A DNA stretch of 64,000 nt. Origin: Candidatus Gottesmanbacteria bacterium. GTDB taxonomy: Bacteria > Patescibacteriota > Microgenomatia > UBA10105 > UBA927. The first letter of the stretch is position 1; each line of letters begins with the position of its first letter. Positions 10,121 through 57,803 of the stretch are shown here, in pieces. The stretch spans positions 6,725 through 70,724 of the forward strand of contig JACRMP010000005.1 in NCBI GenBank assembly GCA_016214885.1, read 5' to 3'. The notes under the pieces are model-generated. The model was given only the letters and a program-made list of their open reading frames with translations. It was not told the DNA's origin and did not search any database. The translations under genes were made by a program, and so were the position numbers.

Positions 10121-11206
10121 ATGACTCCGTTTCTTCCACCATTACTTATAGCAGTACTTTTAACCGCGCTGGTAACACCCGTTGTGGCATACTTGGCCAG
10201 GCGCTGGGGTCTGGTCGATGACCCTAAGCATCGATACCATCCGGCTCACACCCACAAAGGCATTGTCCCGCGTGCAGGAGGCCTTGCAATACTTATCGGC
10301 ATCTCGGTTACCATTCTTCTTTCTATCCCGCTAACGCCACAGCTTCTCGGAATACTCATCGGTAGTGTGATGCTCACCATCATCGGACTCCTCGATGACA
10401 AAAAGGACGTAAGCCCGTATATACGCCTTGTAGTAAACGCTGCAGTAGCGATCCTTGTGGTGGCAACAGGAAGCACCATTCCGTTTATCACCAACCCTTT
10501 GACCGGAGGCATTCTCCCGCTCAATGCGCTAAGTATCCAGCTTTCTTTCGGGGATATGGTTATTTCCATAGGGCTTCCTCATATTCTTGCCATTATCTGG
10601 ATCGTCTGGACAATGAATATCATCGGTTGGTCTGCGGGAGTTGACGGACAGATGCCCGGCTATGTAGCGATCTCTGCATTTGTACTGGGATTACTATCCC
10701 TGCGATATAGCCTTCTTGATCCATCCCAGATATGGGTGACATTACTGGCATTCATCGTGGCGGGCGCATATCTGGGATTCCTACCATGGAACTTCTATCC
10801 GCAGCGCATCATGCCTGGCTACGGCGGCAAAACGCTTGCGGGATTTTATCTGGCACTGCTGGGCATTCTGTCTTTTGCCAAACTGGGTACAGCGCTTCTT
10901 GTCCTGGGAATTCCCATGCTGGATGCCGTGGCAACGCTGATACGGAGAATCGGCAACAAAAAATCGCCCGTGCTGGCCGACCGGGGACACCTCCACCACA
11001 AACTCCTGGATCTTGGCTGGACAAAACCCCGGATCGCCTTGTTTTACTGGGGTGTCTCGGCTATACTGGGGCTGGTCTCACTCACAGTCACGAGTACGCT
11101 AAAAGTATTTACCTTTATCGCTGTGGCTGTTGCGTTGACCATGTTTTTTGTATGGGTCAGCTACTTTACGCAATTCTCAAAGCAGCGCGACCACGACAGT
11201 GGCTGA
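10121..11206 (+). CDS. GT4 polyprenyl-phosphate N-acetylhexosamine-1-phosphate transferase (MraY/WecA family)
   Basis: LLDDKKD and GVDGQ motifs, and the ADRGHLHHKLLDLGW signature typical of WecA/TagO-type enzymes. About 10 TM helices. Confidence 0.8.
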   Translation: MTPFLPPLLIAVLLTALVTPVVAYLARRWGLVDDPKHRYHPAHTHKGIVPRAGGLAILIGISVTILLSIPLTPQLLGILIGSVMLTIIGLLDDKKDVSPYIRLVVNAAVAILVVATGSTIPFITNPLTGGILPLNALSIQLSFGDMVISIGLPHILAIIWIVWTMNIIGWSAGVDGQMPGYVAISAFVLGLLSLRYSLLDPSQIWVTLLAFIVAGAYLGFLPWNFYPQRIMPGYGGKTLAGFYLALLGILSFAKLGTALLVLGIPMLDAVATLIRRIGNKKSPVLADRGHLHHKLLDLGWTKPRIALFYWGVSAILGLVSLTVTSTLKVFTFIAVAVALTMFFVWVSYFTQFSKQRDHDSG

Positions 11207-12090
11207 AGAACGTAGCGCTGTTCACTACGATATTGTTTACGGGACAGCTATTTAATGGACCGCAATTTACGGCGGCATTTCTTGGGTTTATCGCATTTTG
11301 TTTCCTCGCGTCGTCCAACTATATCCTGAACGATGTTCTGGATGCCCCCGCAGACAGACGCCATCCGTTCAAAAAATTCAGACCGGTCGCCAGCGGCAAG
11401 TTACCCATCAAAACAGCACTTCTTGTTTCACTGCTTCTGCTTACCGCAGGGCTAAGTATTGCCAGCGCGGTGGGACAGACATTCTTTATATTTTCATTAG
11501 TCTTTATCCTGCTCCAGTATTCATACTCCATAGTGCTTAAACACATATCAGTAATAGACATTATTGCTATTACGATAGGCTACGTACTCCGGGTGTATGC
11601 GGGAGAAGCAGCCAGCGGGTATCATATCTCCATCTGGCTGGCTCTTGCCGCGCTGTCGCTTGCGTTATTTTTGGCTATCGGTAAACGGCGGGCGGAGCTC
11701 ACGCTGATACAAAGTTCAGGCGATGCGTCGCCGAAAGATACCAGAGCTGCGCTCTCCCACTATTCCGAAAAACTGCTGGATGCATATACTTCTATGTTCG
11801 CGACCAGCACGTTCATTTCCTATACCTATTTCACTTTTCTGGAACGACCGATTACCCAAGGGCTCATCTTCCGTAATTACAGTGACTTCGTCATCGGTAT
11901 TCCTGATAGGAAATGGATGATGTTAACGATACCCTTTGTGCTGTATGGCATTATGCGGTATATGCAACTTATTTATCATGGAAAAGGTGAATCACCGGAA
12001 CAGATACTAACAACTGATTTACCGCTCCTCTCTACCGTGGTAATCTGGGCGGGAGCTGCCTTCTTCATCATCTACGGCATCGGGGGCTAA
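11152..12090 (+). CDS. UbiA-family prenyl-phosphate phosphoribosyltransferase (decaprenyl-phosphate 5-phosphoribosyltransferase-like)
   Basis: LKAARPRQWLKNVALF N-terminus and NDVLDAPADRRHP (NDxxDxxxD) motif. The start was moved to an internal ATG at 11152. The ORF-track 5' extension (10732-11151) overlaps the GT4 gene in another frame and is rejected. Confidence 0.7.
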   Translation: MGQLLYAILKAARPRQWLKNVALFTTILFTGQLFNGPQFTAAFLGFIAFCFLASSNYILNDVLDAPADRRHPFKKFRPVASGKLPIKTALLVSLLLLTAGLSIASAVGQTFFIFSLVFILLQYSYSIVLKHISVIDIIAITIGYVLRVYAGEAASGYHISIWLALAALSLALFLAIGKRRAELTLIQSSGDASPKDTRAALSHYSEKLLDAYTSMFATSTFISYTYFTFLERPITQGLIFRNYSDFVIGIPDRKWMMLTIPFVLYGIMRYMQLIYHGKGESPEQILTTDLPLLSTVVIWAGAAFFIIYGIGG

Positions 12091-15806: not shown

Positions 15807-16434
15807 AAATCCACATTTCGTGAGGCCGCTCGCTATTTCTGTCTTTCTGATCCCAGACCAACTGGTCAAACACTTTAAATCCCGCTTCTTCGAGGGAAGT
15901 CCTGACTTCTTCGCGCGTATAATAGGTAAAATACCGGGTATCGCCTTCTATCGTGCCGCTGGTTACCAGCTGATCCCCGGTTCCTTCTTTAAGAAGCAGG
16001 AATAATGTGCCGCCAGGCGTCAGCATATGCTGGAAATTCCGCAGCACCGGAAGCCCTTCTTCGCGGGTCAGATGCAGAAGCGATGCGCATGCCCAAATGC
16101 CATCGAACGAAGAATTAAGGGCAATGTTCCGTAGGTCCATTTTCAGAAAACGGGCGTTGGGGTGTGCGGTTTCTATGGCATACGCAAGAAGCGTTTCTGA
16201 TAAATCAATCCCTGTCACCACAAACCCTTTGGAAGCAAAATAATTAGCGTCCCTCCCTGAGCCGCACCCGGCGTCCAGTATTTTTCCTCCCGGTTTAACG
16301 AGAGAAATAAATTTCTCGCGTTCCGACTGCGGCGCGTACTTCTGGACTTTCAGGATATATTCCTTAGCGGTCTTGTTGTAAGTATCGATAGTAGTTTGGA
16401 TGAAATTATTCTTCATGACTAATCTTATTAGCAA
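15781..16434 (-). CDS. class I SAM-dependent methyltransferase
   Basis: Motif I ILDAGCGSGRD and downstream motifs. Small-molecule/UbiE-SmtA-like MTase rather than a DNA MTase. Confidence 0.8.
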   Translation of the reverse strand: MLIRLVMKNNFIQTTIDTYNKTAKEYILKVQKYAPQSEREKFISLVKPGGKILDAGCGSGRDANYFASKGFVVTGIDLSETLLAYAIETAHPNARFLKMDLRNIALNSSFDGIWACASLLHLTREEGLPVLRNFQHMLTPGGTLFLLLKEGTGDQLVTSGTIEGDTRYFTYYTREEVRTSLEEAGFKVFDQLVWDQKDRNSERPHEMWISTFATTAG

Positions 16435-16933
16435 CCTTTTTTTTAGACTTCAATATATAAGTTGCATCAACAACGCCATCTAGCTTCGCAATCACTGCCA
16501 TTAATGTTTGGTTTAACACTTCTTGATCGTTTTTATTTTCTTGCTTTATTTCCTCATATTCTATTCCAAAAGGGCGTCCAATTTTATCTATATCTCCTTC
16601 ATCAATTGAATAATTAAGCTCGTGACTACAATCATTCCTTACCGAATTCAGATTTTTAAGTGAATCAACTAATTTGCTTGGAATTGCTTCCATGGCTTCG
16701 AGAATAGATAGTTTCTCGCTGTAATACTTAAAGCTCTTAATCAAGATATAGCCTTTCGGAATTAGCATTGTTATTAATCTATCAAGATAATATTCGGCGA
16801 GCAGGTGACACTTTAGTATCTTAGTCACATCGTCGCCACAAGTTTGCATAACTTTTACGAATTTGTTGTATCCATCATCCTCAAGCATTTCTCGAGTAAT
16901 AACGTCTGTTTTATTTGATTTGCTATCGACCAT
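16406..16933 (-). CDS. hypothetical protein, AT-rich singleton with HEPN-like Rx4H motif (possible DUF4145/Abi-like)
   Basis: 175-aa ORF in a local GC trough (~35% vs ~50% flanks). Carries the motif NSVRNDCSHELNY. Its own RBS (GGAAAGGAAG) lies directly after the groEL terminator. Confidence 0.4.
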   Translation of the reverse strand: MVDSKSNKTDVITREMLEDDGYNKFVKVMQTCGDDVTKILKCHLLAEYYLDRLITMLIPKGYILIKSFKYYSEKLSILEAMEAIPSKLVDSLKNLNSVRNDCSHELNYSIDEGDIDKIGRPFGIEYEEIKQENKNDQEVLNQTLMAVIAKLDGVVDATYILKSKKKVANKISHEE

Positions 16934-17007: not shown

Positions 17008-18672
<1,665 letters not shown>

Positions 18673-18689
18673 CTATAAATTATTAATAA

Positions 18690-19007
18690 TTATTCAACGA
18701 TTGCCAAAATATCTTTTTGTTCGACGATGGTCCACTCTTTACCGTCGACTTTAATCTCGTTGCCTCCCCATTTTTTGTACATGACTTTCTGACCTACCTT
18801 GACCACCATGGCGCCCTTACCACAGCTGCCGCCTTCGCAGTCACAGTCACAACTATCGGAGCCTGCTCCTACTGCCATAACCTCGCCCATTTGGGGTTTT
18901 TCTTTTGCGCTATCAGGCAAGATGATTCCTGAGGATAATTTCTGTTCTGCCTCCAACGGCTTGATGAGAACATTATCAAACAACGGTGTGATGGTTTGTT
19001 TTGCCAT
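18690..19007 (-). CDS. groES: co-chaperonin GroES (Cpn10) with a Cys-rich insertion in the roof hairpin
   Basis: Canonical GroES N- and C-terminal parts. The roof-loop region is replaced by GAGSDSCDCDCEGGSCGKGAM, which has 5 Cys. Confidence 0.95.
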   Translation of the reverse strand: MAKQTITPLFDNVLIKPLEAEQKLSSGIILPDSAKEKPQMGEVMAVGAGSDSCDCDCEGGSCGKGAMVVKVGQKVMYKKWGGNEIKVDGKEWTIVEQKDILAIVE

Positions 19008-19058
19008 AACTACCTCCTTTATAAATTTATTAATGCGACTACCGGTTTTTCTTAAATA

Positions 19059-19112
19059 CTAGCAGTCATTAGAAGTGAGTGCTATTTTATCGGTGATAAA
19101 AAAACTTGTCAA
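19059..19112 (-). promoter_or_regulatory. groESL promoter (TTGACA-17-TAAAAT) followed by a CIRCE-like inverted repeat (CTAGCAGTC-N9-GAGTGCTAT), the presumed HrcA operator
   Basis: Reverse strand reads cccccTTGACAagtttttttatcaccgaTAAAATagcactc-acttctaat-gactgctag. Matches the CIRCE consensus TTAGCACTC-N9-GAGTGCTAA with 3 mismatches. Confidence 0.65.
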
Positions 19113-25031: not shown

Positions 25032-25046
25032 CGTATTTATTGTAAG

Positions 25047-25118
25047 TGGGTCAGCTTGGGATCGGACCAAGGACATCTATCTTATAAGGATAGCGCTCTA
25101 CCACTGAGCTACTGACCC
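25047..25118 (-). tRNA. tRNA-Ile(UAU)-like tRNA gene (anticodon loop CUUAUAA), unusual T-loop TCCGATC, CCA not encoded
   Basis: Manual cloverleaf on the reverse strand. Acceptor GGGTCAG/CTGACCC, D-arm GCTC-AGTGGTA-GAGC, anticodon stem CTATC/GATAG and T-stem CTTGG/CCAAG all pair perfectly. Confidence 0.6.
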
Positions 25119-26940: not shown

Positions 26941-29370
26941 TTATAACCGGGCACGTTCCTGTATTTCCGCTTCGATTAATTCACGCGCCTGCCCGTATTT
27001 AAGCCGCGACAACTGGATAATGGCTGCAGCCACATCCCTGTTTCTCTCGGCATTAACAACCGTCATATCTTTAGACAAATCCACACTAAACGGTTTCACC
27101 GGCTCGTTGTGCACAATTGTTTTAACATATGCGTTGAATTTGTCTATATTGATTAAATCAATTTCATTAAATGTCGGCTGGAATTCGTGTTGGAGATAAT
27201 TGGCATCGGTGACACCGACACGGAATGTTATGAGAGTTCCGACGTTTCCGAATACGGCGTTCTTCACTTCTTCTTCCATTTGTCCGATAAATTGGTTGGC
27301 TACGGTAAGGCTTAACCGGTATTTACGAGCCTCGGACAAAATCTGCGCAAAATCTGGGGTGGCAAAATTCTGGAACTCATCGACATACAGGTAAAAGTCA
27401 CGCCGCTTTTCCTCGGGAACATCCTGTCTGCTCATCGCGGCGATAAGAATACGCGGAACCAAAATTAATCCCAGGAAATTGCTGTTTTCTTCGCCCAATT
27501 TTCCCTTAGAGAGATTTACCAGTAAGATTTTCCCCTCATCCATGACCTTACGGAAGTTAAAGCTTGATTCCGACTGCCCAATGATGTTGCGCATGAGTTT
27601 ATTGGTGACGAAACGTCCGAATTTGGAAACGATATAATCCAACACCTCAGACTTATGGAAGTCAGCGGTCTGTGCAATCTGATCCGTCCAGTATCTTCTG
27701 ATGATCGGATCCTGCACCTTGGGCAACAGCTCCTGTACAAAATTGGCGTCTGTTAATATACGCACCACTTCAATAAAGGTGGTGCCCGGCTCATACATTA
27801 CCGTCAACATGGCGTTTCTTACCGCGTGTTCAAACCGCGGACCGATAATACCGGTTTTCTGCGGATCATAAAGCTTGTACATAAGTCCGACGATACTCGT
27901 TACCACAAAATGCTTCTGCTCCTCAGTTTCTGCCTCTAACATGTTAAGACCCATCGGCCGCTCACCGTCGGACGGATCAAAATAAATAACGTCTTCCGCG
28001 CGTTCCGGCGGAATACGGGTTAAAATACCGTCGATTAAATCTCCGTGGGGATCAATAACGGCAAGTCCCTTGCCCGCTTTTACATCCTGGATGACCAACT
28101 CTTCAAGCATTTGTGATTTTCCGGTACCCGTTTTTCCGATAACATAAATATGCCGCCTTCTGTCGTCATCCCCAATAAATATCGGCCTGTCTACGCCGCG
28201 GTACCTCGAAACACCAACATATAAACCACTCGATGCTATCTGCATCGGTGCAGGTGCACGTTTGGCATTCAGCCAAAAAATATGAGGAGTCTCAATCGAT
28301 TTATTCGGTAAATGATAAATGGTTGCCAATTCATCGCTGTTTAAAACACCGTACTGCTTAAACATCGGCAAATTCACCATGGGGAAATACCGGTATATAA
28401 AGTCGATCATAAAAAACTTCTTCATCGGATGCTTCACCTTGGAAAAGTGGTTGTGATCCGACGTATATTGGTGAAATGACGTAAGCAGGTTCTCAAGGTG
28501 CGCATCAGCCGCTTCCTTGGTGGCGGCGGATACAACCAGCCGGATGACGGTATTAAATCCCGGCTTAGATACTTTTTGTTCTATGGATTCCAATGTTTTA
28601 GCGTCTACCTTAAAACTTGCCTTCTCAGGATTGGCTTCATTCTTTTTTGTTTTAGAAATATACGATCTCCCTAAACTGCTCCACTTGCTTCCTGCGGGCT
28701 GGATAAGCACCTGGATCACCGCTCCCTCACCCTCTGCCATTTTGGCCAACACGCTGGTAATGGATGATAATGGATCAATGGGTAAATCACGGAATACCCT
28801 GATAGGCAGATAGTCGGAATTTTTCGGAGTAAGAGCTGCAAACGCTACTTTGCCGTTTTCAGAAAATATGTTGTATTCATCAACAATTTTTACATCTGCA
28901 CCCGGATATGAACCGTGAATCTGCTTTTCTACAAGATCGATAAACCGTTTGGGAGCTGCTATATAAAACCGTATGTCTTCCCTTTTGGCGACGATCTCAA
29001 ACGATATATGATCTTGCGGCTTGAGGAATGACCAGAATCCTCCGTGATACATAGCGTGCAGGCTGGCGAACATTTGTTCAGCGGCGTCAATTTTTATTTC
29101 ATTGTCACGCGGCGTTGCCACCTGCATGAGTGTATATTCCATTGATCGCTTCTCGCGGTCACGGTATTTCCATGCCAAAAATAATACATAGCCCAACACG
29201 GCAAACCCGATGAGACAAAAGGTAAGGATAAGCAGTGCTACTCCCAGCACTTCAAGTTGATACACAATATCGGCAAATTCGAGCGGCATAATATTATTCA
29301 GTAGTTGACCGTGTTGTTTTTCCTTTTGCGGAGGTAAGCAATATGTGCGCCTGCTTGAGCTGGCGTTCAC
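26941..29370 (-). CDS. membrane-anchored VirD4/TraG/TraD-family coupling-protein-like P-loop ATPase
   Basis: N-terminal TM helices. Walker A VIGKTGTGKSQ followed by AVIDPHGDL (the DPKGD-like motif of TrwB/VirD4) and Walker B LYVDEFQNF. Confidence 0.55.
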   Translation of the reverse strand: MNASSSRRTYCLPPQKEKQHGQLLNNIMPLEFADIVYQLEVLGVALLILTFCLIGFAVLGYVLFLAWKYRDREKRSMEYTLMQVATPRDNEIKIDAAEQMFASLHAMYHGGFWSFLKPQDHISFEIVAKREDIRFYIAAPKRFIDLVEKQIHGSYPGADVKIVDEYNIFSENGKVAFAALTPKNSDYLPIRVFRDLPIDPLSSITSVLAKMAEGEGAVIQVLIQPAGSKWSSLGRSYISKTKKNEANPEKASFKVDAKTLESIEQKVSKPGFNTVIRLVVSAATKEAADAHLENLLTSFHQYTSDHNHFSKVKHPMKKFFMIDFIYRYFPMVNLPMFKQYGVLNSDELATIYHLPNKSIETPHIFWLNAKRAPAPMQIASSGLYVGVSRYRGVDRPIFIGDDDRRRHIYVIGKTGTGKSQMLEELVIQDVKAGKGLAVIDPHGDLIDGILTRIPPERAEDVIYFDPSDGERPMGLNMLEAETEEQKHFVVTSIVGLMYKLYDPQKTGIIGPRFEHAVRNAMLTVMYEPGTTFIEVVRILTDANFVQELLPKVQDPIIRRYWTDQIAQTADFHKSEVLDYIVSKFGRFVTNKLMRNIIGQSESSFNFRKVMDEGKILLVNLSKGKLGEENSNFLGLILVPRILIAAMSRQDVPEEKRRDFYLYVDEFQNFATPDFAQILSEARKYRLSLTVANQFIGQMEEEVKNAVFGNVGTLITFRVGVTDANYLQHEFQPTFNEIDLINIDKFNAYVKTIVHNEPVKPFSVDLSKDMTVVNAERNRDVAAAIIQLSRLKYGQARELIEAEIQERARL

Positions 29371-29806
29371 ACCACTCAGCCAGCCAACGCCACGAACTCA
29401 TGAGACTCTGATGAAGCCCCTGTGCTATCTGGTCATCGGTAAGAGGAAGGGTAATCGCTGCTACCTGCGAGGCGGGAGGAGCCGCCGGCCCCACTGCACT
29501 AACCCCCATTTTTTGGACAATATGCGGCAACTCTATACTATCTGACTTCATGGAAACACCCGCCATTCTGACTTCGGGGGATAATTCAGTATCTTTTCCC
29601 ACTTCTGCCATCAGAGGAGCCTCGACTGCACCGACTATCGGCGCCACTTCCTTTGCCATGCTTCCCACCACACCGGCCGGCTGCGGGTTTACCGGCGGGG
29701 ATGTATTTGACTTAGCATTGGGCAGATCATCCATATTTATTATTCTATCATGAACCATACACGAATATGACGCCTGACGAAGGCCATGAAACATTACCGG
29801 CGGCAC
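29294..29806 (-). CDS. hypothetical protein (170 aa), in an operon between the 696-aa protein and the VirD4-like ATPase
   Basis: ORF overlaps both neighbours on the same strand. No recognisable motif. Confidence 0.3.
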   Translation of the reverse strand: MPPVMFHGLRQASYSCMVHDRIINMDDLPNAKSNTSPPVNPQPAGVVGSMAKEVAPIVGAVEAPLMAEVGKDTELSPEVRMAGVSMKSDSIELPHIVQKMGVSAVGPAAPPASQVAAITLPLTDDQIAQGLHQSLMSSWRWLAEWCERQLKQAHILLTSAKGKTTRSTTE

Positions 29807-31838
29807 CGGGTTTATCTTTCTTTTTTTTCTTGTTCTTTTTAAGCGGTGTGGAACGTGGTTTCCCGTGCTCCCTGAGGGCAGTTAAATACCAAATGATAGA
29901 TAATAAAAGCCAGGAGGGCTCCCTCCCGGCATCTACCCCGAACTCCTGAGTGGTATCCGTGTTGCGCGAGGCCTTTACCGCCTCGGCAGGATACGCCTGA
30001 TTGTACTTTCCGAAATCCACGAGCCACCACACGATGACGGCAATACTTAACGAACGGGCGGTCATATATATTTTCTTCTCATCTTCCGTTATTGTTCCGG
30101 AGACACTCTCTTTGAGAATAACAGGTGGCGGCGGTGCTTCATTTCCGGAAATCTTTTTTCTCTTAATCCGCGGGGGCGTTACATCACGCGAAAAGTGCCG
30201 CAGCATACGAAGGAGTTTTTCCATAACCATTGCGGGAAACACTTTGGTAACTTTTTCCCCGCTGCTTTGTTGCTGCAGCAGCTCACGCGTCGCCTGCCGC
30301 ACTTGACCTGCTTCAACCGGAACAGTCCGCAACACACGCTTTCCCGCCTTCTTTTCATTAAGCCCGCGGAGTAATCCCATAATCGTACGGACCGATAATG
30401 GTTTCTTTTTTTCCTTTCCCGGGGGTTTTTGCGGCAGTATTTCATCCGGAGTTTTTTTGCGAAACAGAGCCGCTTCGGGGATAACAAGCCGGGGTGTTTC
30501 CCGTGGAGCCGTCAGCCAAAGAATGATTGCCGCAGGAACCACTGCCGCACTTTCCTTATAGCGGAGAAGGGATTTGGTTATCCACCATTCTGCAGCTATT
30601 ACTTTCATGGACTCGGATGAGGCAGTTGTTGGGGCAACAGCAATACCTACCCGCTCCGACCGAACCGCTGCCGCAACAGCAAGCGGACTCACCTCTGTCG
30701 GGCTTTTGGTCGATACATTAAGCCTGCTATCTTTCGCTGCGGGCTGTTTATCGCTCTTTTCTTTAGGTGATGCAAATTGGTTAATCTTCCGGTCTATCTG
30801 TTCGCGCAAAAAAGTCCCCAGCTCAACCATGGAATGGGACATATCCCTGGCAATAGTGCTACCCATATCCGGGAGTGTTTTGCGGGAGGAAATATTCTCA
30901 CCGGAAACTGATTCGTAATATTCCATAGCCTGCGCTATGGCTATTGTCCGTATGTCCTCATCATGAACTTCCTTTTCGTAAATAAAAAAATGGGCATACG
31001 CTGCGGCATCCGGCCCAGTGCTGCCCAGCTGCTCGTTATGAAATGATGCGAGATGCTCAATAAATTTTTCCCCTTCTTCGTGGGTAAAATCCCTGCCGGT
31101 AGTTTTATACAAATCAACCTGTTTGGAAACAACACTCCCATCATCCGTTTTTTGCCAAACCTGCACATACCGCACCGCGTCAGGATGGGAAAGTACGCTG
31201 ACAAATCCTCTAGCACTCCCGTCGATAAACTCGTTCTGCATGGTTATCTGGGCTTTGTGTTCTTCCGGATTGTAGGCTGCCGGATTCCCGGTAAATTCCG
31301 CGTACTGGCGGGTGTGCTCCCATAATTCTGAAAGGGTAACCATTTTATCGCCGTATGCAGTAGCTAACTCCCAATTACCCTCCGCTGTCTGTACGGGTTG
31401 CCAATGAACAACAGATTCTTCATGGGCAATTTCCTTGTGTTCATACGACAGATCCTGCGCCAAACGTTTCTCAAAACGCTCTACTGCCGCTTGCTTTACC
31501 TGATCGACAGTCCACTGCGGATGCTCACGGGCGACCTCCGGTTCAATAAAATTTATCAGAGAGTAGGAAGCGGCATCTGAACTAAATGAATGGTCGCCGC
31601 GCCACACGGGGGGCTCATTTTCTTCAGTGGTATCACGGAGTACTGCAATACCCCGAAGCGTCATCCGGTCCGCATACCGCTCGCGGGCATCACGGTCTTC
31701 GGTTGTACGCGTATTAATTCCGGAAGATATAAAATATTCGGGAGAGGGTTTCTCCATACATAAACCTCCTGCTCGGGATACAGATAAGGGGGAGTTCCGG
31801 ACTATTCCGATAATCATCGGATTACACCGTTGCGGCAC
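29748..31838 (-). CDS. large hypothetical protein with C-terminal TM helix and poly-Lys tail (start probably internal, MEKPSPEYF near 31757)
   Basis: 696-aa ORF co-directional with and upstream of the VirD4-like gene. No conserved catalytic motif recognised. Confidence 0.4.
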   Translation of the reverse strand: MPQRCNPMIIGIVRNSPLSVSRAGGLCMEKPSPEYFISSGINTRTTEDRDARERYADRMTLRGIAVLRDTTEENEPPVWRGDHSFSSDAASYSLINFIEPEVAREHPQWTVDQVKQAAVERFEKRLAQDLSYEHKEIAHEESVVHWQPVQTAEGNWELATAYGDKMVTLSELWEHTRQYAEFTGNPAAYNPEEHKAQITMQNEFIDGSARGFVSVLSHPDAVRYVQVWQKTDDGSVVSKQVDLYKTTGRDFTHEEGEKFIEHLASFHNEQLGSTGPDAAAYAHFFIYEKEVHDEDIRTIAIAQAMEYYESVSGENISSRKTLPDMGSTIARDMSHSMVELGTFLREQIDRKINQFASPKEKSDKQPAAKDSRLNVSTKSPTEVSPLAVAAAVRSERVGIAVAPTTASSESMKVIAAEWWITKSLLRYKESAAVVPAAIILWLTAPRETPRLVIPEAALFRKKTPDEILPQKPPGKEKKKPLSVRTIMGLLRGLNEKKAGKRVLRTVPVEAGQVRQATRELLQQQSSGEKVTKVFPAMVMEKLLRMLRHFSRDVTPPRIKRKKISGNEAPPPPVILKESVSGTITEDEKKIYMTARSLSIAVIVWWLVDFGKYNQAYPAEAVKASRNTDTTQEFGVDAGREPSWLLLSIIWYLTALREHGKPRSTPLKKNKKKKKDKPGAAGNVSWPSSGVIFVYGS

Positions 31839-32451: not shown

Positions 32452-34926
32452 TTAGCACTCTGAATAACCGCAGGAATAACATTTCTTGCAGGATTCCTCA
32501 AAAACCAGACTTCCTTCGCCGCACGAAGGACAAAGGTCTACTGTTACCATCCGCCGCTCGGTAAGCATCATGTGCGTAGCCGGTACTGTCATGGGTTTAT
32601 CCGCCGGCTCTACATTCGGCGCAGGTGCTACGGCAACCGCCGGCACACCAATTAATGCTGATCCGTGCCCGTTGCCGTTCCCGTTTGCCGTATGGCCATT
32701 TACGGGAGTAGCCTGCGGGTTTGCCAGCGGTGCATCGACCCGGTGCTTGGCAAAGAAACCAAAATGACGGTCTATGGCTTTTGCCACTGCGTCCGGAAGG
32801 GATCGCACCCTGTTTTCCCCAAATCCGAGACTTCTGGCACCGCCTATTCCGATAAGCTCACTTGCCACCCGGTGCGCACGTTCCATAGGAGAAATGGGCG
32901 AGGCCACACGCAAAACAAGAGAAATTAGCCTTCCCATCGCCTCAGCCATAGCGGTCACATCACTTCCTGCTTTACCGACATTTACAAATACTTCAAGCGG
33001 CTGCTCACCGCCGTTGGTATTAATGGTGATATACGCCTGACCCATTGGTGTTTCGATCTGATACGTTGACCCGTGTACCACTGCAGGCCTGGGCTTCACT
33101 TCCGCATTAAGCATGGGGGCTGCCACCTGTTTTATTTCCTCCTTTTTGGGCTCCTCTTCTTTGCGGGTGAGGACTCCTTCACGGCTTCCTTCCCGCATAT
33201 ATGCTATTCCCTTACAACCCAACTCATAAGCCAGCGTATACAGCCTTTTTACATCTTCTACCGTATGGGTTTTAGGAGCATTCACCGTTTTAGAAATAGA
33301 GGCATCGACATACTCCTGGATCGCTGCCTGGACGCGGACATGGTCTTCCGGCGTAAGGTCGTTTGCGGATACAAAATATTCAGGGCGCTCCGATTTGTCG
33401 GGATCCTTTCCATGCTCGGCTTTATATGCCTGAAGCCATGCTTCATACAGCGGATGCCGGAGAATGTGCTCTCCCAAACGGTCACGCCGTATGAATTCAA
33501 ATTCATACACCGGCTCAATACCGCTGGATACTCCCGCCATGAGCGACGTTGATCCCGTAGGCGCCTGCTGCAATACCATTGAATTACGTATACCGTGGCG
33601 CTTCATTTTTTTACGGATTGTTTCCGGAAGTTTTTTGATGAAATAGGCTTCTACGTGCTTGGCCTTATTTATCTTAGGAAACGCTCCCTTTTCGCGAGCA
33701 AGATCTACCGATGCATCGTATGCCGCATCCCGTATAGTGCTGTAGATTTTATCTATCACCGCAAGACTCTCTTCAGACCCATACCGGAGCTTCATTTTAA
33801 TGAGCGCATCTCCCAATCCCATAGTGCCGAGGCCGATACGGCGCTCACCATGAAGCTGGACTTCTTTTATCTGGTCGAATATATAAAAATCAGCATCGAT
33901 AATATTATCCTGGAACCGGACGCCGACACGGGCAACTTGGATTAAGCGCTCATAATCAAATTCCCCTTTGTCGTTAACGAGAGCCGCAAGGTTTATGGAA
34001 GTTAAGTTGCACACTCCCCAATTCGGCAGTCCTTCTTCTCCGCAGGGATTGACGCAGTTTACATACTCAAAATAAGAATTATTAAACCATTTATTGTAGC
34101 GCTCCATAAACACCACGCCGGGTTCTGCACTCTTCCAAGCGGCAGTTGCTACCAGATCCCACAGTGCACGCGCCTTTATCGTTTTATGAACGATGGGCTT
34201 CTTACCTAACGCTATCCAGTTGGGGAGGTACCCATCCCATTTAGTATCGTAGTCGGGATCCTTAGGATCAGGGAACATTAGCTGCCAATCGCCGTCTTTT
34301 TTCACCGCGTCCATAAACGCATCAGACACACACACGGAAAGATTTGCACCGTTAATGCGGGCCAGATCCTGTTTTACGGTAATAAACTCTTCGATATCCG
34401 GATGCCAGTCCCACAACATGAGCATGAGCGCCCCTCTGCGGCTTCCGCCCTGCTGGATGATATCTTTGGTGGCAACGGAAAATAATTCAGCCCAATTACA
34501 GGGACCCGATGAGAAACCGTTTACTTTCTGCACCCGTGCCCCCCGGGGACGCAGAGAAGAAAGATTTATACCCACGCCTCCACCGCGCGACATAATCTCC
34601 ACCATCTGCGACAGGGTGGTAAGTATTCCTCCGCGTGAATCGTGGGGACTTGGGATAACAAAGCAGTTATAAAACGTGACCTTATACCCGGTTCCCAATC
34701 CGGAAAGTATACGGCCGCCGGGTACTAATACAAAATCCCGCAGTGCGTCATAAAATTTTTCCTCCCAAACTTTCCGGTTTTCCTTTTTTTCCTGAAGGGC
34801 AGCAGCTCCCGCGACCCGCCGCCACATTTCTTCAGGGGTCTGCTCAATCGCCTCTCCCTTATCGTTCTTCAATGCATAACGGTCGGTGAATACTGTTTTA
34901 CGGATTCCGGTAAAGTTTGTGTCCAT
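32452..34926 (-). CDS. nrdJ: adenosylcobalamin-dependent (class II) ribonucleotide reductase NrdJ with C-terminal Zn-ribbon
   Basis: Conserved class II RNR regions (VPGGRILSGLG, NCFVIP, MSRGGGVGINLSSLRPRG, LMLMLWDWHPDIEEF) and a C-terminal CPSCG...CKKCYSCG motif. Confidence 0.9.
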   Translation of the reverse strand: MDTNFTGIRKTVFTDRYALKNDKGEAIEQTPEEMWRRVAGAAALQEKKENRKVWEEKFYDALRDFVLVPGGRILSGLGTGYKVTFYNCFVIPSPHDSRGGILTTLSQMVEIMSRGGGVGINLSSLRPRGARVQKVNGFSSGPCNWAELFSVATKDIIQQGGSRRGALMLMLWDWHPDIEEFITVKQDLARINGANLSVCVSDAFMDAVKKDGDWQLMFPDPKDPDYDTKWDGYLPNWIALGKKPIVHKTIKARALWDLVATAAWKSAEPGVVFMERYNKWFNNSYFEYVNCVNPCGEEGLPNWGVCNLTSINLAALVNDKGEFDYERLIQVARVGVRFQDNIIDADFYIFDQIKEVQLHGERRIGLGTMGLGDALIKMKLRYGSEESLAVIDKIYSTIRDAAYDASVDLAREKGAFPKINKAKHVEAYFIKKLPETIRKKMKRHGIRNSMVLQQAPTGSTSLMAGVSSGIEPVYEFEFIRRDRLGEHILRHPLYEAWLQAYKAEHGKDPDKSERPEYFVSANDLTPEDHVRVQAAIQEYVDASISKTVNAPKTHTVEDVKRLYTLAYELGCKGIAYMREGSREGVLTRKEEEPKKEEIKQVAAPMLNAEVKPRPAVVHGSTYQIETPMGQAYITINTNGGEQPLEVFVNVGKAGSDVTAMAEAMGRLISLVLRVASPISPMERAHRVASELIGIGGARSLGFGENRVRSLPDAVAKAIDRHFGFFAKHRVDAPLANPQATPVNGHTANGNGNGHGSALIGVPAVAVAPAPNVEPADKPMTVPATHMMLTERRMVTVDLCPSCGEGSLVFEESCKKCYSCGYSEC

Positions 34927-34928
34927 AG

Positions 34929-35384
34929 TTATTTCTTTTTAATTAATTTTCTAAGCTCCCCCTCGAATTCATCGAGGTCTACAAATTGTTTAAATACACT
35001 TGCAAATCTTATATAAGCTATCTTATCCAGTTTTTTAAGTCGCTTAGCCACCAATTCACCAATTTTCTTGCTCGTCATCTCGGTGGAGTTGCCGCCGATA
35101 AGCTCCCGCTCTACCTCATCCACAATTCTTCTGATGTCGCTTCCCTTGAGTGTTGTTTTGCCGCTTGCCCGCCAAATCCCGCGCTCCAGCTTCTCCCGGT
35201 CAAACGGCTCTCTTCTTGCGTCCTTTTTGATTACGGTCAATGGTACTGTTTCAATCCGTTCGTAGGTGGTAAACCGCTTCTCACATTTGCTGCAGCTTCT
35301 TCTTCTCCTCGTTACCGCAAGATCCTCACTGTCGCGTGTTTCTATAACCTCGGTGTCAGTATTAGTACAATAAGGACATTTCAT
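34929..35384 (-). CDS. nrdR: transcriptional repressor NrdR (Zn-ribbon + ATP-cone)
   Basis: MKCPYCTNTDTEVIETR...CSKCEKRFTTYERIE followed by an ATP-cone. The gene is 3 nt upstream of nrdJ. Confidence 0.92.
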   Translation of the reverse strand: MKCPYCTNTDTEVIETRDSEDLAVTRRRRSCSKCEKRFTTYERIETVPLTVIKKDARREPFDREKLERGIWRASGKTTLKGSDIRRIVDEVERELIGGNSTEMTSKKIGELVAKRLKKLDKIAYIRFASVFKQFVDLDEFEGELRKLIKKK

Positions 35385-35680
35385 TGGTGCTCTTCTCTTT
35401 TGGAACAGTATGTCGTGAAACCTCTAAACACTAAGTGTGGTGTGCTATGAAATCCTAAGGCACTAATAGTGGGGCGTCAACTGGCAACTTCTATATCAAA
35501 ATCACCCAATATAAAAAGCCAGCCTCGTGAAATTTTTTTGAGGGAAAAGTACGGTGAATATTGCCTAAAAAAATCAGATAAATTCTTTGTTTAGTGTTCC
35601 CAGATAAAGAAACAGTCATGTTTCACAATCGCGGGATATACACCTCTGTCTATCTATATATAGGTATCTGTACACCTTTA

Positions 35681-56129: not shown

Positions 56130-57803
56130 TTAACATTCCCCTGTGGCGCAACGGTAGCGCAGCTTCCTGTTAAGAAGACGGTTGTAGGTTCGAATCCTAC
56201 CGGGGGAGCAAACTTCGTTCACTGCGAGTTCTATAAACTGCAGCGGTTTTTCTAAATTCACCCGTACAGTTTTGTTGTAAAGCTCTAGGTTCGAACCAAG
56301 CCCCGCTAAAATCTCCCTCTTTGTTTGTGTGTCTCCATTGGCAAACCAATAACGCGCGTGACAAGCGAAGTCGAAAGTTTTCTCAGCGGTCTCTCTCCAT
56401 GTCTCGGTCTGATATCTGTTCCCTCCAAGTTTTTCAGTTATTATATTTTTTTCTTTGGTCAGTCGTTCTTTTTCTGCTCGATATTCTTCGTCACTGATAA
56501 GAATGCCGTCCGCGTTTTGCGGAGATATTCTAAGATTCAAAAGGTTATTTAGACGAGTTTCTATATCTGTATTCGCTGATTGAAGAGATTTCAGTGTAGC
56601 CAAATTTTCCTCCGACTCTCTATCATTCAGTTCGTTCAGATATTTTATTGCCCAATTTTTGAAGCGCTCCGAGACTTGGAGCTTTGCGAGGGTTTTATCA
56701 AATTCTTTGTCTAACTCTTCAACTCGGATGCTCTTTTGGATGCAGTTTTGATTTTTGTGTTTGGTGCAGTGGTAATAAACATAATGCAGAAGTGTTGGAT
56801 TTTTCATTTCTTCGATTGAGGTTTTACATTTCGGACAAGCGTCCTTGTTTTGAGAAGCGAACTTGTTTTTGCATTTAGAGCATATTATTTGAAACTTTTC
56901 TTCTGCAGTAATAGTCGCATGGCATTCACCACATTCTAGAAGTCCTGTATACGCAAATGACCGAGTGTGTGGTCGAGGTCTTCCTTTTCTTCCAAGCAAT
57001 CTTTGCACCTTGTCGAATTCTTCTTTGGTAATCATTGGCTGATGTTTGCCTTTGCGCCAAATTCCGCTTCCAGTCGGATACTCAAAGTCTCCGTAATAAA
57101 AGGGGTCTATTAGCGTTTTGTATATTTGACTTCTCGTCATTGGTTTTCCACCTATCCGTTTATGCTTGGGAGTCCTATAGCCCCATTCGTCGTTTAGAAG
57201 TCGTAATATTTGCATGACCGTATACGTTCCCGTGAGCATGCAATCCCACGCTTTGCGTATTAGCGGAAATCTATCTGGGTCAACTAAGATGGTTTTGTTT
57301 CCCTTTTCTGCATACTTGTCGTTCATATAACCAGCTTTAGCACCGCTGGGGAGCCAGCCATTCTCTGCTTTTGTATTGAGACCTCGCTTGACGTTTTTTG
57401 AGAGGTCATCTACAAATTTTTGTGCCACACCAAACTCTAGATACATGAGAATGCTATTCTCGTTTGATTGATTGAAGGTTTGCGAAGGAGTTACTATGTC
57501 TATGCCATTTTGTTTTATTGCCCAAATAATACTCCCACCATCGATAGGATTTCTGGCGAGACGGTCAAGCTTCCAACTGATAATTCCTTGAGCCTCTCCA
57601 GCTAAAACTCGTCGAATCATTTCATTGAAGACAGGCCTACCGGGTTCCTTGGCTGACTGAGATTCTTGAAAGGGTTTTTCAGCAACATCAAGATTCAGCC
57701 TTTTTGCCAAGCTTTTGAGTTCTTCAATTTGAGAGCCGATAGACAATACCTGTCTGTCTTCGCTTTCACTAGATTTTCTGGCGTAAATGAAGTATTTACT
57801 CAT
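56130..57803 (-). CDS. large serine recombinase (resolvase/invertase N-terminal catalytic domain + recombinase domain + Zn-ribbon + coiled-coil). The annotated C-terminus reads antisense through tRNA-Asn.
   Basis: N-terminus YARKSSESEDRQVLSIGSQ (catalytic Ser) ...DRLARN. Cys-rich CGECHATITAEEKFQIICSKCKNK...CPKC Zn-ribbon. The C-terminal peptide SPGRIRTYN is the antisense reading of the tRNA T-arm. Confidence 0.85.
   Translation of the reverse strand: MSKYFIYARKSSESEDRQVLSIGSQIEELKSLAKRLNLDVAEKPFQESQSAKEPGRPVFNEMIRRVLAGEAQGIISWKLDRLARNPIDGGSIIWAIKQNGIDIVTPSQTFNQSNENSILMYLEFGVAQKFVDDLSKNVKRGLNTKAENGWLPSGAKAGYMNDKYAEKGNKTILVDPDRFPLIRKAWDCMLTGTYTVMQILRLLNDEWGYRTPKHKRIGGKPMTRSQIYKTLIDPFYYGDFEYPTGSGIWRKGKHQPMITKEEFDKVQRLLGRKGRPRPHTRSFAYTGLLECGECHATITAEEKFQIICSKCKNKFASQNKDACPKCKTSIEEMKNPTLLHYVYYHCTKHKNQNCIQKSIRVEELDKEFDKTLAKLQVSERFKNWAIKYLNELNDRESEENLATLKSLQSANTDIETRLNNLLNLRISPQNADGILISDEEYRAEKERLTKEKNIITEKLGGNRYQTETWRETAEKTFDFACHARYWFANGDTQTKREILAGLGSNLELYNKTVRVNLEKPLQFIELAVNEVCSPGRIRTYNRLLNRKLRYRCATGEC
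56136..56207 (+). tRNA. tRNA-Asn(GUU)
   Basis: Manual cloverleaf: acceptor TCCCCTG/CGGGGGA, D-arm GCGC-AACGGTA-GCGC, anticodon loop CUGUUAA, T-arm GTAGG-TTCGAAT-CCTAC. TATAAT at ~56114. Confidence 0.8.

Follow-up and report, generated by a model that had tools for sequence, protein, structure and literature searches.

Cysteine-rich roof loops on the GroES dome of Microgenomatia, a candidate metal-binding site at the chaperonin apex

We analyzed a stretch of 64,000 nucleotides from a Candidatus Gottesmanbacteria bacterium, an uncultured member of the Microgenomatia (Patescibacteria, candidate phyla radiation; contig JACRMP010000005.1, positions 6,725 to 70,724; hereafter the window), and in it the gene for the co-chaperonin GroES (groES or cpn10; 18690..19007, minus strand), whose product carries a cysteine-rich extension of the roof beta-hairpin, the element that closes over the apex of the GroES dome. 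The trait reaches far beyond one genome, given that 188 related sequences share a cysteine (Cys)-rich roof. Our best reading, which draws on analogy, is that this roof is a functional analogue of the nickel-binding GroES of Helicobacter, HspA, placed at another position and relying on other chemistry. We assign a probability of roughly 0.5 to metal binding at the dome apex in a metallothionein- or HspA-like mode, as suggested by the sequences and by comparison with these known proteins.

The extended roof hairpin comprises residues A48-M67 (AGSDSCDCDCEGGSCGKGAM; 18807..18866, minus strand), as delimited by alignments with E. coli GroES and 120 homologues and by loop tables, and the translation of the open reading frame (ORF) contains SDSCDCDCEGGSCGKG. 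The hairpin has 20 residues versus 13 in the nearest Cys-free relatives, and the segment between GEVMAVG and VKVG is seven residues longer than in E. coli GroES and the closest 98-aa relatives. Direct reading of the DNA gives four Cys in these 20 residues, arranged as C53-x-C55-x-C57-x4-C62 (18822..18851, minus strand; codons at 18849-51, 18843-45, 18837-39, and 18822-24, respectively), with a CxCxC run and no His in the insertion. An earlier note on this DNA had counted five Cys and up to 35 thiols per heptamer; there are four (residues 53, 55, 57, and 62), and therefore 28 thiols per heptamer. It had also described the roof as replaced. A longer, Cys-rich loop does stand at the dome apex, but it extends the hairpin, with the flanks G-x-G and M-V-V-K-V-G retained around the insertion, and at the turn position it reads E-G-G-S, unlike the D-[DE]-K of most relatives. 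The rest of the protein is the ordinary GroES that the earlier note had described, as family profile, fold, operon, and mobile loop all fit.

Cys content was 0.82% across the 57 long ORFs of the window, and the chance of finding four Cys in a 10-residue stretch was about 1e-6 per position and about 0.02 over the window proteome; the cluster exceeds chance, being very unlikely to have arisen that way. Three long ORFs besides groES also have at least three Cys within 12 residues, namely 10732..12090 (plus strand; four Cys), 34986..35450 (plus strand; three Cys), and 32452..34926 (minus strand), the last of which encodes the ribonucleotide reductase large subunit, with a TSCPD domain and the C-terminal end CKKCYSCGYSEC.

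Two homologue searches and 80 GTDB species loci were pooled into 307 distinct GroES sequences, which fell into two classes. Roof segments of the short class (119/307) had 12–14 residues and no Cys, while those of the long class (188/307) had 15–31 residues and 2–6 Cys, with 4–5 in most; not one of the 307 roofs had exactly one Cys, and 306 of the sequences had no Cys outside the roof loop. Cys-rich roofs were found in Gottesman-, Roizman-, and Woesebacteria-type GroES, with PG[NS]DCCGGDCCxDDKKKCGGM as a recurring motif in Roizmanbacteria, and some of these proteins entered UniProt and nr with the GW2011 genomes, under the plain annotation GroES. Instead of the simple lineage-wide insertion that the earlier note had envisaged, the trait is all-or-none and scattered among close relatives with Cys-free roofs. 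In a search of 50%-identity representatives of 1.8 billion proteins, a Cys-rich roof occurred among the best 150 of 15,570 matches only in P0100, which represents the clade of the window, and distant phyla may differ. Outside the clade, P0125 had a 27-residue Ser/Gly-rich roof insertion with a single Cys, and P0172 had a roof of normal length with two Cys (GAICEKTCAV); judging from these two sequences, other remodelling of the roof is tolerated. Many GTDB records with Microgenomatia-type groESL (L002, L005, L007, L009, and others) are titled "uncultured Gammaproteobacteria bacterium" (metagenome-assembled genomes from binchicken co-assemblies), and L048 is titled "Weeksellaceae bacterium"; such titles look like placeholders or mis-binning and are unfit for taxonomy.

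Three further sequencing runs yielded contigs with the same loop-coding DNA (L081-L083), and six more samples yielded allelic variants of the window gene (L084-L089); in all, assemblies of at least nine independent samples contained an identical or near-identical gene. A sequencing or assembly artefact, or a pseudogene, could find a foothold in one unique substitution of the window copy (S25 for the conserved P25). This explanation has next to no probability in view of these recoveries and was ruled out, given the independent assemblies, the intact frame and operon, and the strong purifying selection on the core. The sequencing or assembly artefact that the earlier note had contemplated is thus dispelled, and the Cys, whose conservation among close relatives it had treated as decisive, are conserved through synonymous codon changes.

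Selection on the loop was evaluated by comparing codons in 10 loci from nine samples of the closest clade. The four Cys were invariant even though three of their four codons toggled between TGT and TGC, while 10 of the 13 non-Cys loop codons had an amino-acid change. Outside the loop, amino-acid changes affected 3 of 88 codons and synonymous changes 43. The loop evolves fast while its Cys are held by purifying selection, as their invariance through TGT/TGC changes among replaced neighbors indicates.

These patterns bear on the idea that the loop is a functionless low-complexity expansion, in which slippage of hexamers or trinucleotides (TGY-GAY units) gave rise to Cys/Asp-rich runs that a permissive surface loop tolerates and that drift. 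A (TGTGAC)2 hexamer repeat encodes the CDCD of the window loop and relatives differ by CD units, L001 and L002 having CDC for example, which suggests slippage as one source of loop length variation. The loops are hypervariable in both length and sequence, the T4 co-chaperonin gp31 does without the roof, and the trait was often gained or lost, all as expected of such an expansion. However, drift leaves unexplained why 188 of 188 extended loops are Cys-rich and 0 of 119 short loops have Cys, why no extended loop in the clade has a composition of Ser, Asn, and Gly only, and why Cys stayed fixed through synonymous changes while their neighbors were replaced. Cys is moreover the rarest residue class here (0.82%) and costly if exposed, and we regard a functionless expansion as improbable.

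The composition of the Cys-rich (C+) loops is metallothionein-like, with high Cys content, CC and CxC motifs, and scarce aromatic residues and His. In a first set of 81 C+ loops, the residue make-up was C 22%, G 16%, D 15%, K 10%, S 10%, and E 6%; over all 188 C+ loops, His accounted for 17 of 3777 residues (0.45%) and aromatic residues for less than 1%, and the motif CC was present in 138/188, CxC in 105/188, and CxxC in 51/188. The Cys form two groups per loop, an N-terminal one of 2–4 and a C-terminal one of 1–2 (C53, C55, and C57 versus C62 in the window protein). Between the two groups lies the longest stretch without Cys, which in 170 of 188 loops includes an acidic/Lys turn (D-[DE]-K) resembling the tip of Cys-free hairpins. 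The simplest reading of these sequences is a hairpin whose arms were lengthened by facing Cys groups, with the turn kept.

Metal could also be bound in a purely structural role, with one Zn(Cys)3-4 per subunit tying the arms of the longer hairpin together in the manner of a zinc-ribbon knuckle and having no part in metal homeostasis. Although such a zinc staple would itself be metal binding, we count it apart from the metallothionein- or HspA-like mode. The Cys groups on both sides of the turn and the modal Cys number of 4–5 would suit it, and the presence or absence of Cys can be likened to the C+/C- forms of ribosomal proteins, in which an all-or-none set of Cys has switched repeatedly between lineages, often with both forms as paralogues in one genome. 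The all-or-none roofs with their recurrent switching resemble the loss of Zn ribbons in bacterial ribosomal proteins, which Makarova et al. reportedly described as recurrent in 2001. A structural zinc lobe of the Cys4 type can be accommodated in a GroES-like fold, medium-chain alcohol dehydrogenases being an example; there the lobe is inserted after the strand that follows the roof, hence in another loop, and the likeness is one of analogy only. On the other hand, the number and spacing of the Cys vary, with more than 50 spacing patterns among the first 81 C+ loops, and the fixed geometry of a structural zinc site, with four ligands at conserved spacing (e.g., CxxC...CxxC or CxC-x(27-32)-CxxC), was not found. 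Many loops have CC doublets, in which both Cys could hardly bind one tetrahedral ion, and several have only 2–3 Cys, including those of the close relatives L001 and L002 (CxC...C). No zinc knuckle was predicted by structure modelling, and the ordinary 13-residue hairpin needs no staple, so that the extension would lack a structural reason. For these reasons, a structural staple seems unlikely.

The apex Cys could alternatively be the ligands of an iron-sulfur cluster ([2Fe-2S] or [4Fe-4S]), bound by a single subunit or shared by several, with GroES serving as a cluster carrier or oxygen sensor. There are enough Cys for this (3–6 per subunit, 28 per heptamer), acidic residues are close by, and the lineage has an anaerobic lifestyle. 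However, CC and CxC are metallothionein motif classes and not the ferredoxin-type CxxCxxC...CP, no spacing is conserved between lineages, seven-fold symmetry is awkward for shared clusters with four ligands, and Fe-S assembly genes adjoining groESL were not seen in the loci examined. An iron-sulfur site is therefore highly improbable.

The position of the loop was derived from known structures. AlphaFold2 (AF2) modelled the window protein from an 87-sequence alignment with a core predicted local distance difference test score (pLDDT) of 70–82, and Foldseek matched the model to 1P3H, 1WNR, 4V4O, and 1AON with a probability of 1.00; the best match was M. tuberculosis cpn10 (1P3H, template modelling score 0.74–0.77), and the model has the GroES beta-barrel fold. 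The 18 distinct solved Cpn10 sequences in the Protein Data Bank (PDB) all matched only as ordinary-length co-chaperonins, and the alignments obtained for 3 of these 18 (four aligned domains) had gaps opposite the insertion in all cases. In E. coli, the roof hairpin comprises residues 44-58, with Asn51 at its tip bordering the outer mouth of a central hole of some 5 Å (PMC5653362), and the window insertion maps by alignment to the tip of this hairpin. Given this placement at the tip, the seven clusters would converge at the apex, and we infer that they crowd the seven-fold axis outside the dome, far from the mobile loops.

We propose that the gene product would be a working GroES co-chaperonin with a roof beta-hairpin lengthened by a Cys/Asp/Gly/Lys segment, in which thiolates of both hairpin arms would chelate soft metal ions, probably together with neighboring subunits around the hole. 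Zn2+ would be the likeliest metal, with Cd, Cu(I), or Fe as possibilities; the scarcity of His favors thiophilic ions (Zn, Cd, Cu(I), possibly Fe) over a Ni site like that of HspA. The 28 thiols would ring the GroES7 dome at its outer apex as a metal-thiolate "crown", at a distance from the mobile loops that bind GroEL, and would lend a very abundant stress protein an added metal role (buffering, sequestration, or metal-dependent stiffening) with the chaperonin cycle unchanged, a role resembling nickel handling by the C-terminal domain B of Helicobacter HspA. We favor metal-thiolate binding because selection acts on the Cys only, the motifs are metallothionein-like, the neighboring residues are acidic or Lys, GroES is cytoplasmic, and HspA provides a precedent. 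Given the variable number and spacing of the Cys and their easy gain and loss, buffering, sequestration, or facultative stabilization fits better than a fixed zinc knuckle. Chaperonin function is probably independent of the loop, which seems dispensable for it given that sister species lack the loop and that T4 gp31 is active without a roof.

Several observations weigh against metal binding in this mode. The number (2–6) and spacing of the Cys vary widely, unlike in a fixed-geometry zinc site, and such variability would suit a metallothionein-like site and a low-complexity segment under weak constraint alike. The Cys of the window protein are split 3+1, and some relatives have 2–3 Cys only. 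In two AF2 monomer runs, the second of them on a Roizmanbacteria CCxxxCC allele (42 sequences), loop pLDDT was below 50 and no pre-formed Cys4 knuckle was predicted, and neither run informs the hairpin extension or the Cys geometry. Metal-handling genes adjoining groESL were not seen in the window or in related loci. A second groES copy was not found within the window; the analysis covered loci only, so a second, Cys-free groES elsewhere in the genome is possible.

A redox function would draw on the same thiols. The apex Cys might be free, or hold Zn as in Hsp33, and act as a redox switch or sacrificial thiol buffer, with disulfides formed within or between subunits under oxidative stress locking or stiffening the dome, or with the thiols scavenging oxidants where antioxidant systems are few. 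Selection on Cys is equally compatible with this, the CC...CC and CxC...C groups are placed across the two hairpin arms, and the redox switch of Hsp33 is itself a CxC...CxxC zinc center. In domain B of HspA, moreover, the vicinal pairs C94-C111 and C95-C112 form loop-shaping disulfides (PMC5116745). Nevertheless, stable disulfides are unlikely as GroES is cytoplasmic, the classic CxxC motif is the least frequent class (51/188), and the Asp and Glu that abound beside the Cys would shift the thiol pKa upwards, a drawback in a reactive sensor. Most Microgenomates are inferred to be anaerobic fermenters, and the window has no sign of a thiol-stress regulon, the operator upstream of groES indicating heat-shock control instead. 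A redox role thus appears rather unlikely.

The evolutionary pattern of the roof was examined on a neighbor-joining tree of the adjacent GroEL (76 taxa, 14 Cys-rich tips). Parsimony required nine state changes (8–10 in bootstrap replicates), versus a mean of 13.1 and a minimum of 9 with shuffled tip labels; the roof state is phylogenetically patchy, with at least 8–10 switches among 76 species. Two pairs of loci illustrate the switch. L003 (VCACGDEKDSCCKGEM) and L027 (TTDEKGNPVTM) have GroES that are identical outside the roof, as do L009 and L032, which also pair a Cys-rich with a Cys-free roof, and in both pairs the loop DNA defies alignment, although the groES DNA on either side of it shares about 90% identity. 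The comparison leans on L003/L027, as L009 is a 2.4-kb contig and both L009 and L032 come from co-assemblies of one project. Between L009 and L032, which are species-level metagenome-assembled genomes, groEL has a block of about 700 bp with 100% identity between flanks of 83–94%, and this mosaic may stem from a recent recombination event in groESL or from a chimera made in co-assembly. The roofs without Cys are uniform, much like ordinary bacterial roofs; their sequences suggest that the Cys-free roof is probably the ancestral state, and that the Cys-rich state was probably gained, or exchanged via recombination, many times, two routes that these data do not separate.

We also considered a more specific proposal, in which the loop would be a labile adaptive module that is gained, lost, or exchanged through short-patch recombination between ultra-conserved flanks or through hexamer slippage, with the seven loops jointly building one thiolate cluster of several metal ions that would sit on the seven-fold axis as a "metallothionein crown" or plug. 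This proposal is doubtful. If true, such a crown would represent a symmetric metal site of a new type, shared between subunits, and it would link the most abundant stress protein of the cell to metal and redox homeostasis in ultra-small bacteria without dedicated metallothioneins.

HspA of H. pylori binds two Ni per monomer via an added Cys/His-rich segment and serves in nickel storage and detoxification, and Cys is otherwise rare in the GroES family (PMC5116745). As the earlier note had stated, it is the sole documented metal-binding GroES, which achieves this via a C-terminal tail (PMC5116745), and an internal roof cluster would be a different solution. The two have in common a short extra segment on GroES with four Cys, of which seven copies project from the heptamer, and HspA binds metal without abolishing its co-chaperonin function (PMC5116745). 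However, the HspA segment is a 27-residue C-terminal tail with eight His and two CC pairs and has mainly His ligands, whereas that of the window GroES sits within the chain, where the roof hairpin has its tip on the seven-fold axis, and is rich in Cys, Asp, Gly, and Lys. The window protein has no tail, its end, LAIVE, being aligned with the C-terminus of E. coli GroES. With a Cys-rich loop and scarce His, its metal preference is expected to differ from that of HspA. HspA is also confined to gastric Helicobacter, while the Cys-rich roof belongs to Microgenomatia.

With metallothioneins, the loops share the high Cys content (22% in 81 loops), the dominance of CC and CxC, the richness in Gly, Ser, Lys, and Asp, and the scarcity of aromatic residues and His. 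Unlike metallothioneins, the roof is a loop of 15–31 residues grafted on an oligomeric chaperone, and any cluster would need seven symmetry-related loops; the likeness is one of composition, and we claim no family homology. Ordinary GroES/Cpn10 roofs have the same fold, position, and flanking strands, with an acidic turn lining the hole of about 5 Å (PMC5653362). Those of this clade differ in having 12–14 residues and no Cys (119/119). The acidic dome loop of M. tuberculosis Cpn10 reportedly binds divalent cations, according to Taneja and Mande. The GroES-family co-chaperonin T4 gp31 likewise has a remodelled roof and partners GroEL without any roof loops, so that a drastic roof change spares the GroEL partnership (PMC6318259). 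In gp31, however, the roof loops are deleted and the opening is wider, whereas the window roof is lengthened and Cys-rich. Other chaperones carry appended zinc sites of the Cys4 type with fixed spacing, as in Hsp33 (CxC...CxxC) and DnaJ (CxxCxGxG); these have no sequence relationship to the roof loops, whose spacing is hypervariable.

No description of a Cys-rich GroES roof was found in the literature searched, outside which most subscription journals lie, and no solved structure of one was found in the PDB. For a GroES bearing an extra segment that probably binds metal, the site and the chemistry are apparently new, and the way the trait has evolved is unusual. If our reading is correct, this would be a second independent route to a metal-binding GroES after HspA, with thiolate instead of imidazole ligands and at the apex instead of the rim, and in a highly conserved and much-studied protein, the lid of the chaperonin, it would place 28–42 thiols kept by selection on the symmetry axis. 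It would offer a testable handle on the metal and redox physiology of uncultured bacteria of the candidate phyla radiation, which have small genomes and few dedicated homeostasis proteins. The all-or-none roofs on near-identical GroES scaffolds constitute a natural experiment, L003 and L027 differing in the loop alone, and a heptamer presenting seven short Cys loops around a pore might be of use in protein engineering. Such a roof would surprise a chaperonin specialist and is easily tested, but the function given here is a proposal and no long-standing question is settled by it.

The locus is an ordinary heat-shock groESL operon. The groES ORF encodes 105 aa plus a stop codon (MAKQTITPLFDNVLIKPLEAEQKLSSGIILPDSAKEKPQMGEVMAVGAGSDSCDCDCEGGSCGKGAMVVKVGQKVMYKKWGGNEIKVDGKEWTIVEQKDILAIVE), and its assignment was based on the ORF list, Pfam, NCBIfam cut-offs, and the AF2 fold match. 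Pfam PF00166 (Cpn10) matched with E=1e-27 and 96.4 bits (cut-off 21.1) over positions 2-93 of the 93-position profile, and the protein passed the NCBIfam cut-offs for "co-chaperone GroES" (NF001531, 105.4 bits versus 96; NF001533, 100.2 versus 99). Starting 26 nt downstream of groES, groEL (cpn60; 17008..18663, minus strand) encodes 551 aa with a C-terminal GGM-repeat tail (Pfam PF00118, E=2e-63), and the same groES-groEL order was found in all related loci. In GroES, the mobile loop region (about E19-K37; 18897..18953, minus strand), identified by alignment to E. coli GroES, includes the GroEL-binding hydrophobic tripeptide I28-I29-L30, which aligns with I25-V26-L27 of E. coli, where the mobile loop comprises residues 17-34 (PMC5653362). 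Preceding the tripeptide within this loop, residue 25 (18933..18935, minus strand) is Ser (TCC) in the window protein and Pro (KLPSG) in 86 of 86 aligned relatives, including the 99.6%-identical L081-L083; judging from the sequence, Ser25 either distinguishes this strain or results from an error in one base.

Direct reading places a ribosome-binding site (AAGGAGG; 19013..19019, minus strand) 5 nt upstream of the groES ATG. A pattern scan of both strands found an inverted repeat resembling CIRCE (controlling inverted repeat of chaperone expression), ATAGCACTC-N9-GACTGCTAG (19059..19085, strand not assigned), with three mismatches to TTAGCACTC-N9-GAGTGCTAA, and no second site of this type in the window. 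In groESL operons, CIRCE serves as the operator for HrcA. A promoter scan located a sigma70-like promoter (TTGACA, 17-nt spacer, TAAAAT; 19084..19112, minus strand; 11/12 matches) whose -10 hexamer abuts the repeat, and the two elements together suggest that this Patescibacteria genome uses heat-shock control of the HrcA type. Gene content between groEL and a conserved methyltransferase varies, the slot being occupied by a 175-aa ORF without Pfam match in the window (16406..16933, minus strand), by a 222-aa ORF in L081, by a DUF1508 gene in L082, and by nothing in L084 and L086.

Elsewhere in the window, an 809-aa protein (26941..29370, minus strand) had weak matches to TrwB, TraG, and T4SS-DNA_transf, which are coupling protein domains of type IV secretion, and its neighbor is a large ORF without Pfam match (29748..31838); the two may form a conjugation- or competence-like module. 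A tRNA-Ile (25046..25118, minus strand) has the anticodon TAT, which is uncommon in bacteria, where AUA is usually decoded by a lysidine-modified CAU tRNA. Finally, the 3' end of a gene for a large serine recombinase (56130..57803, minus strand; Resolvase, Recombinase, and Zn_ribbon_recom domains) overlaps a tRNA-Asn on the opposite strand (56137..56209, plus strand), a layout that suggests an integrated mobile element at the tRNA site.

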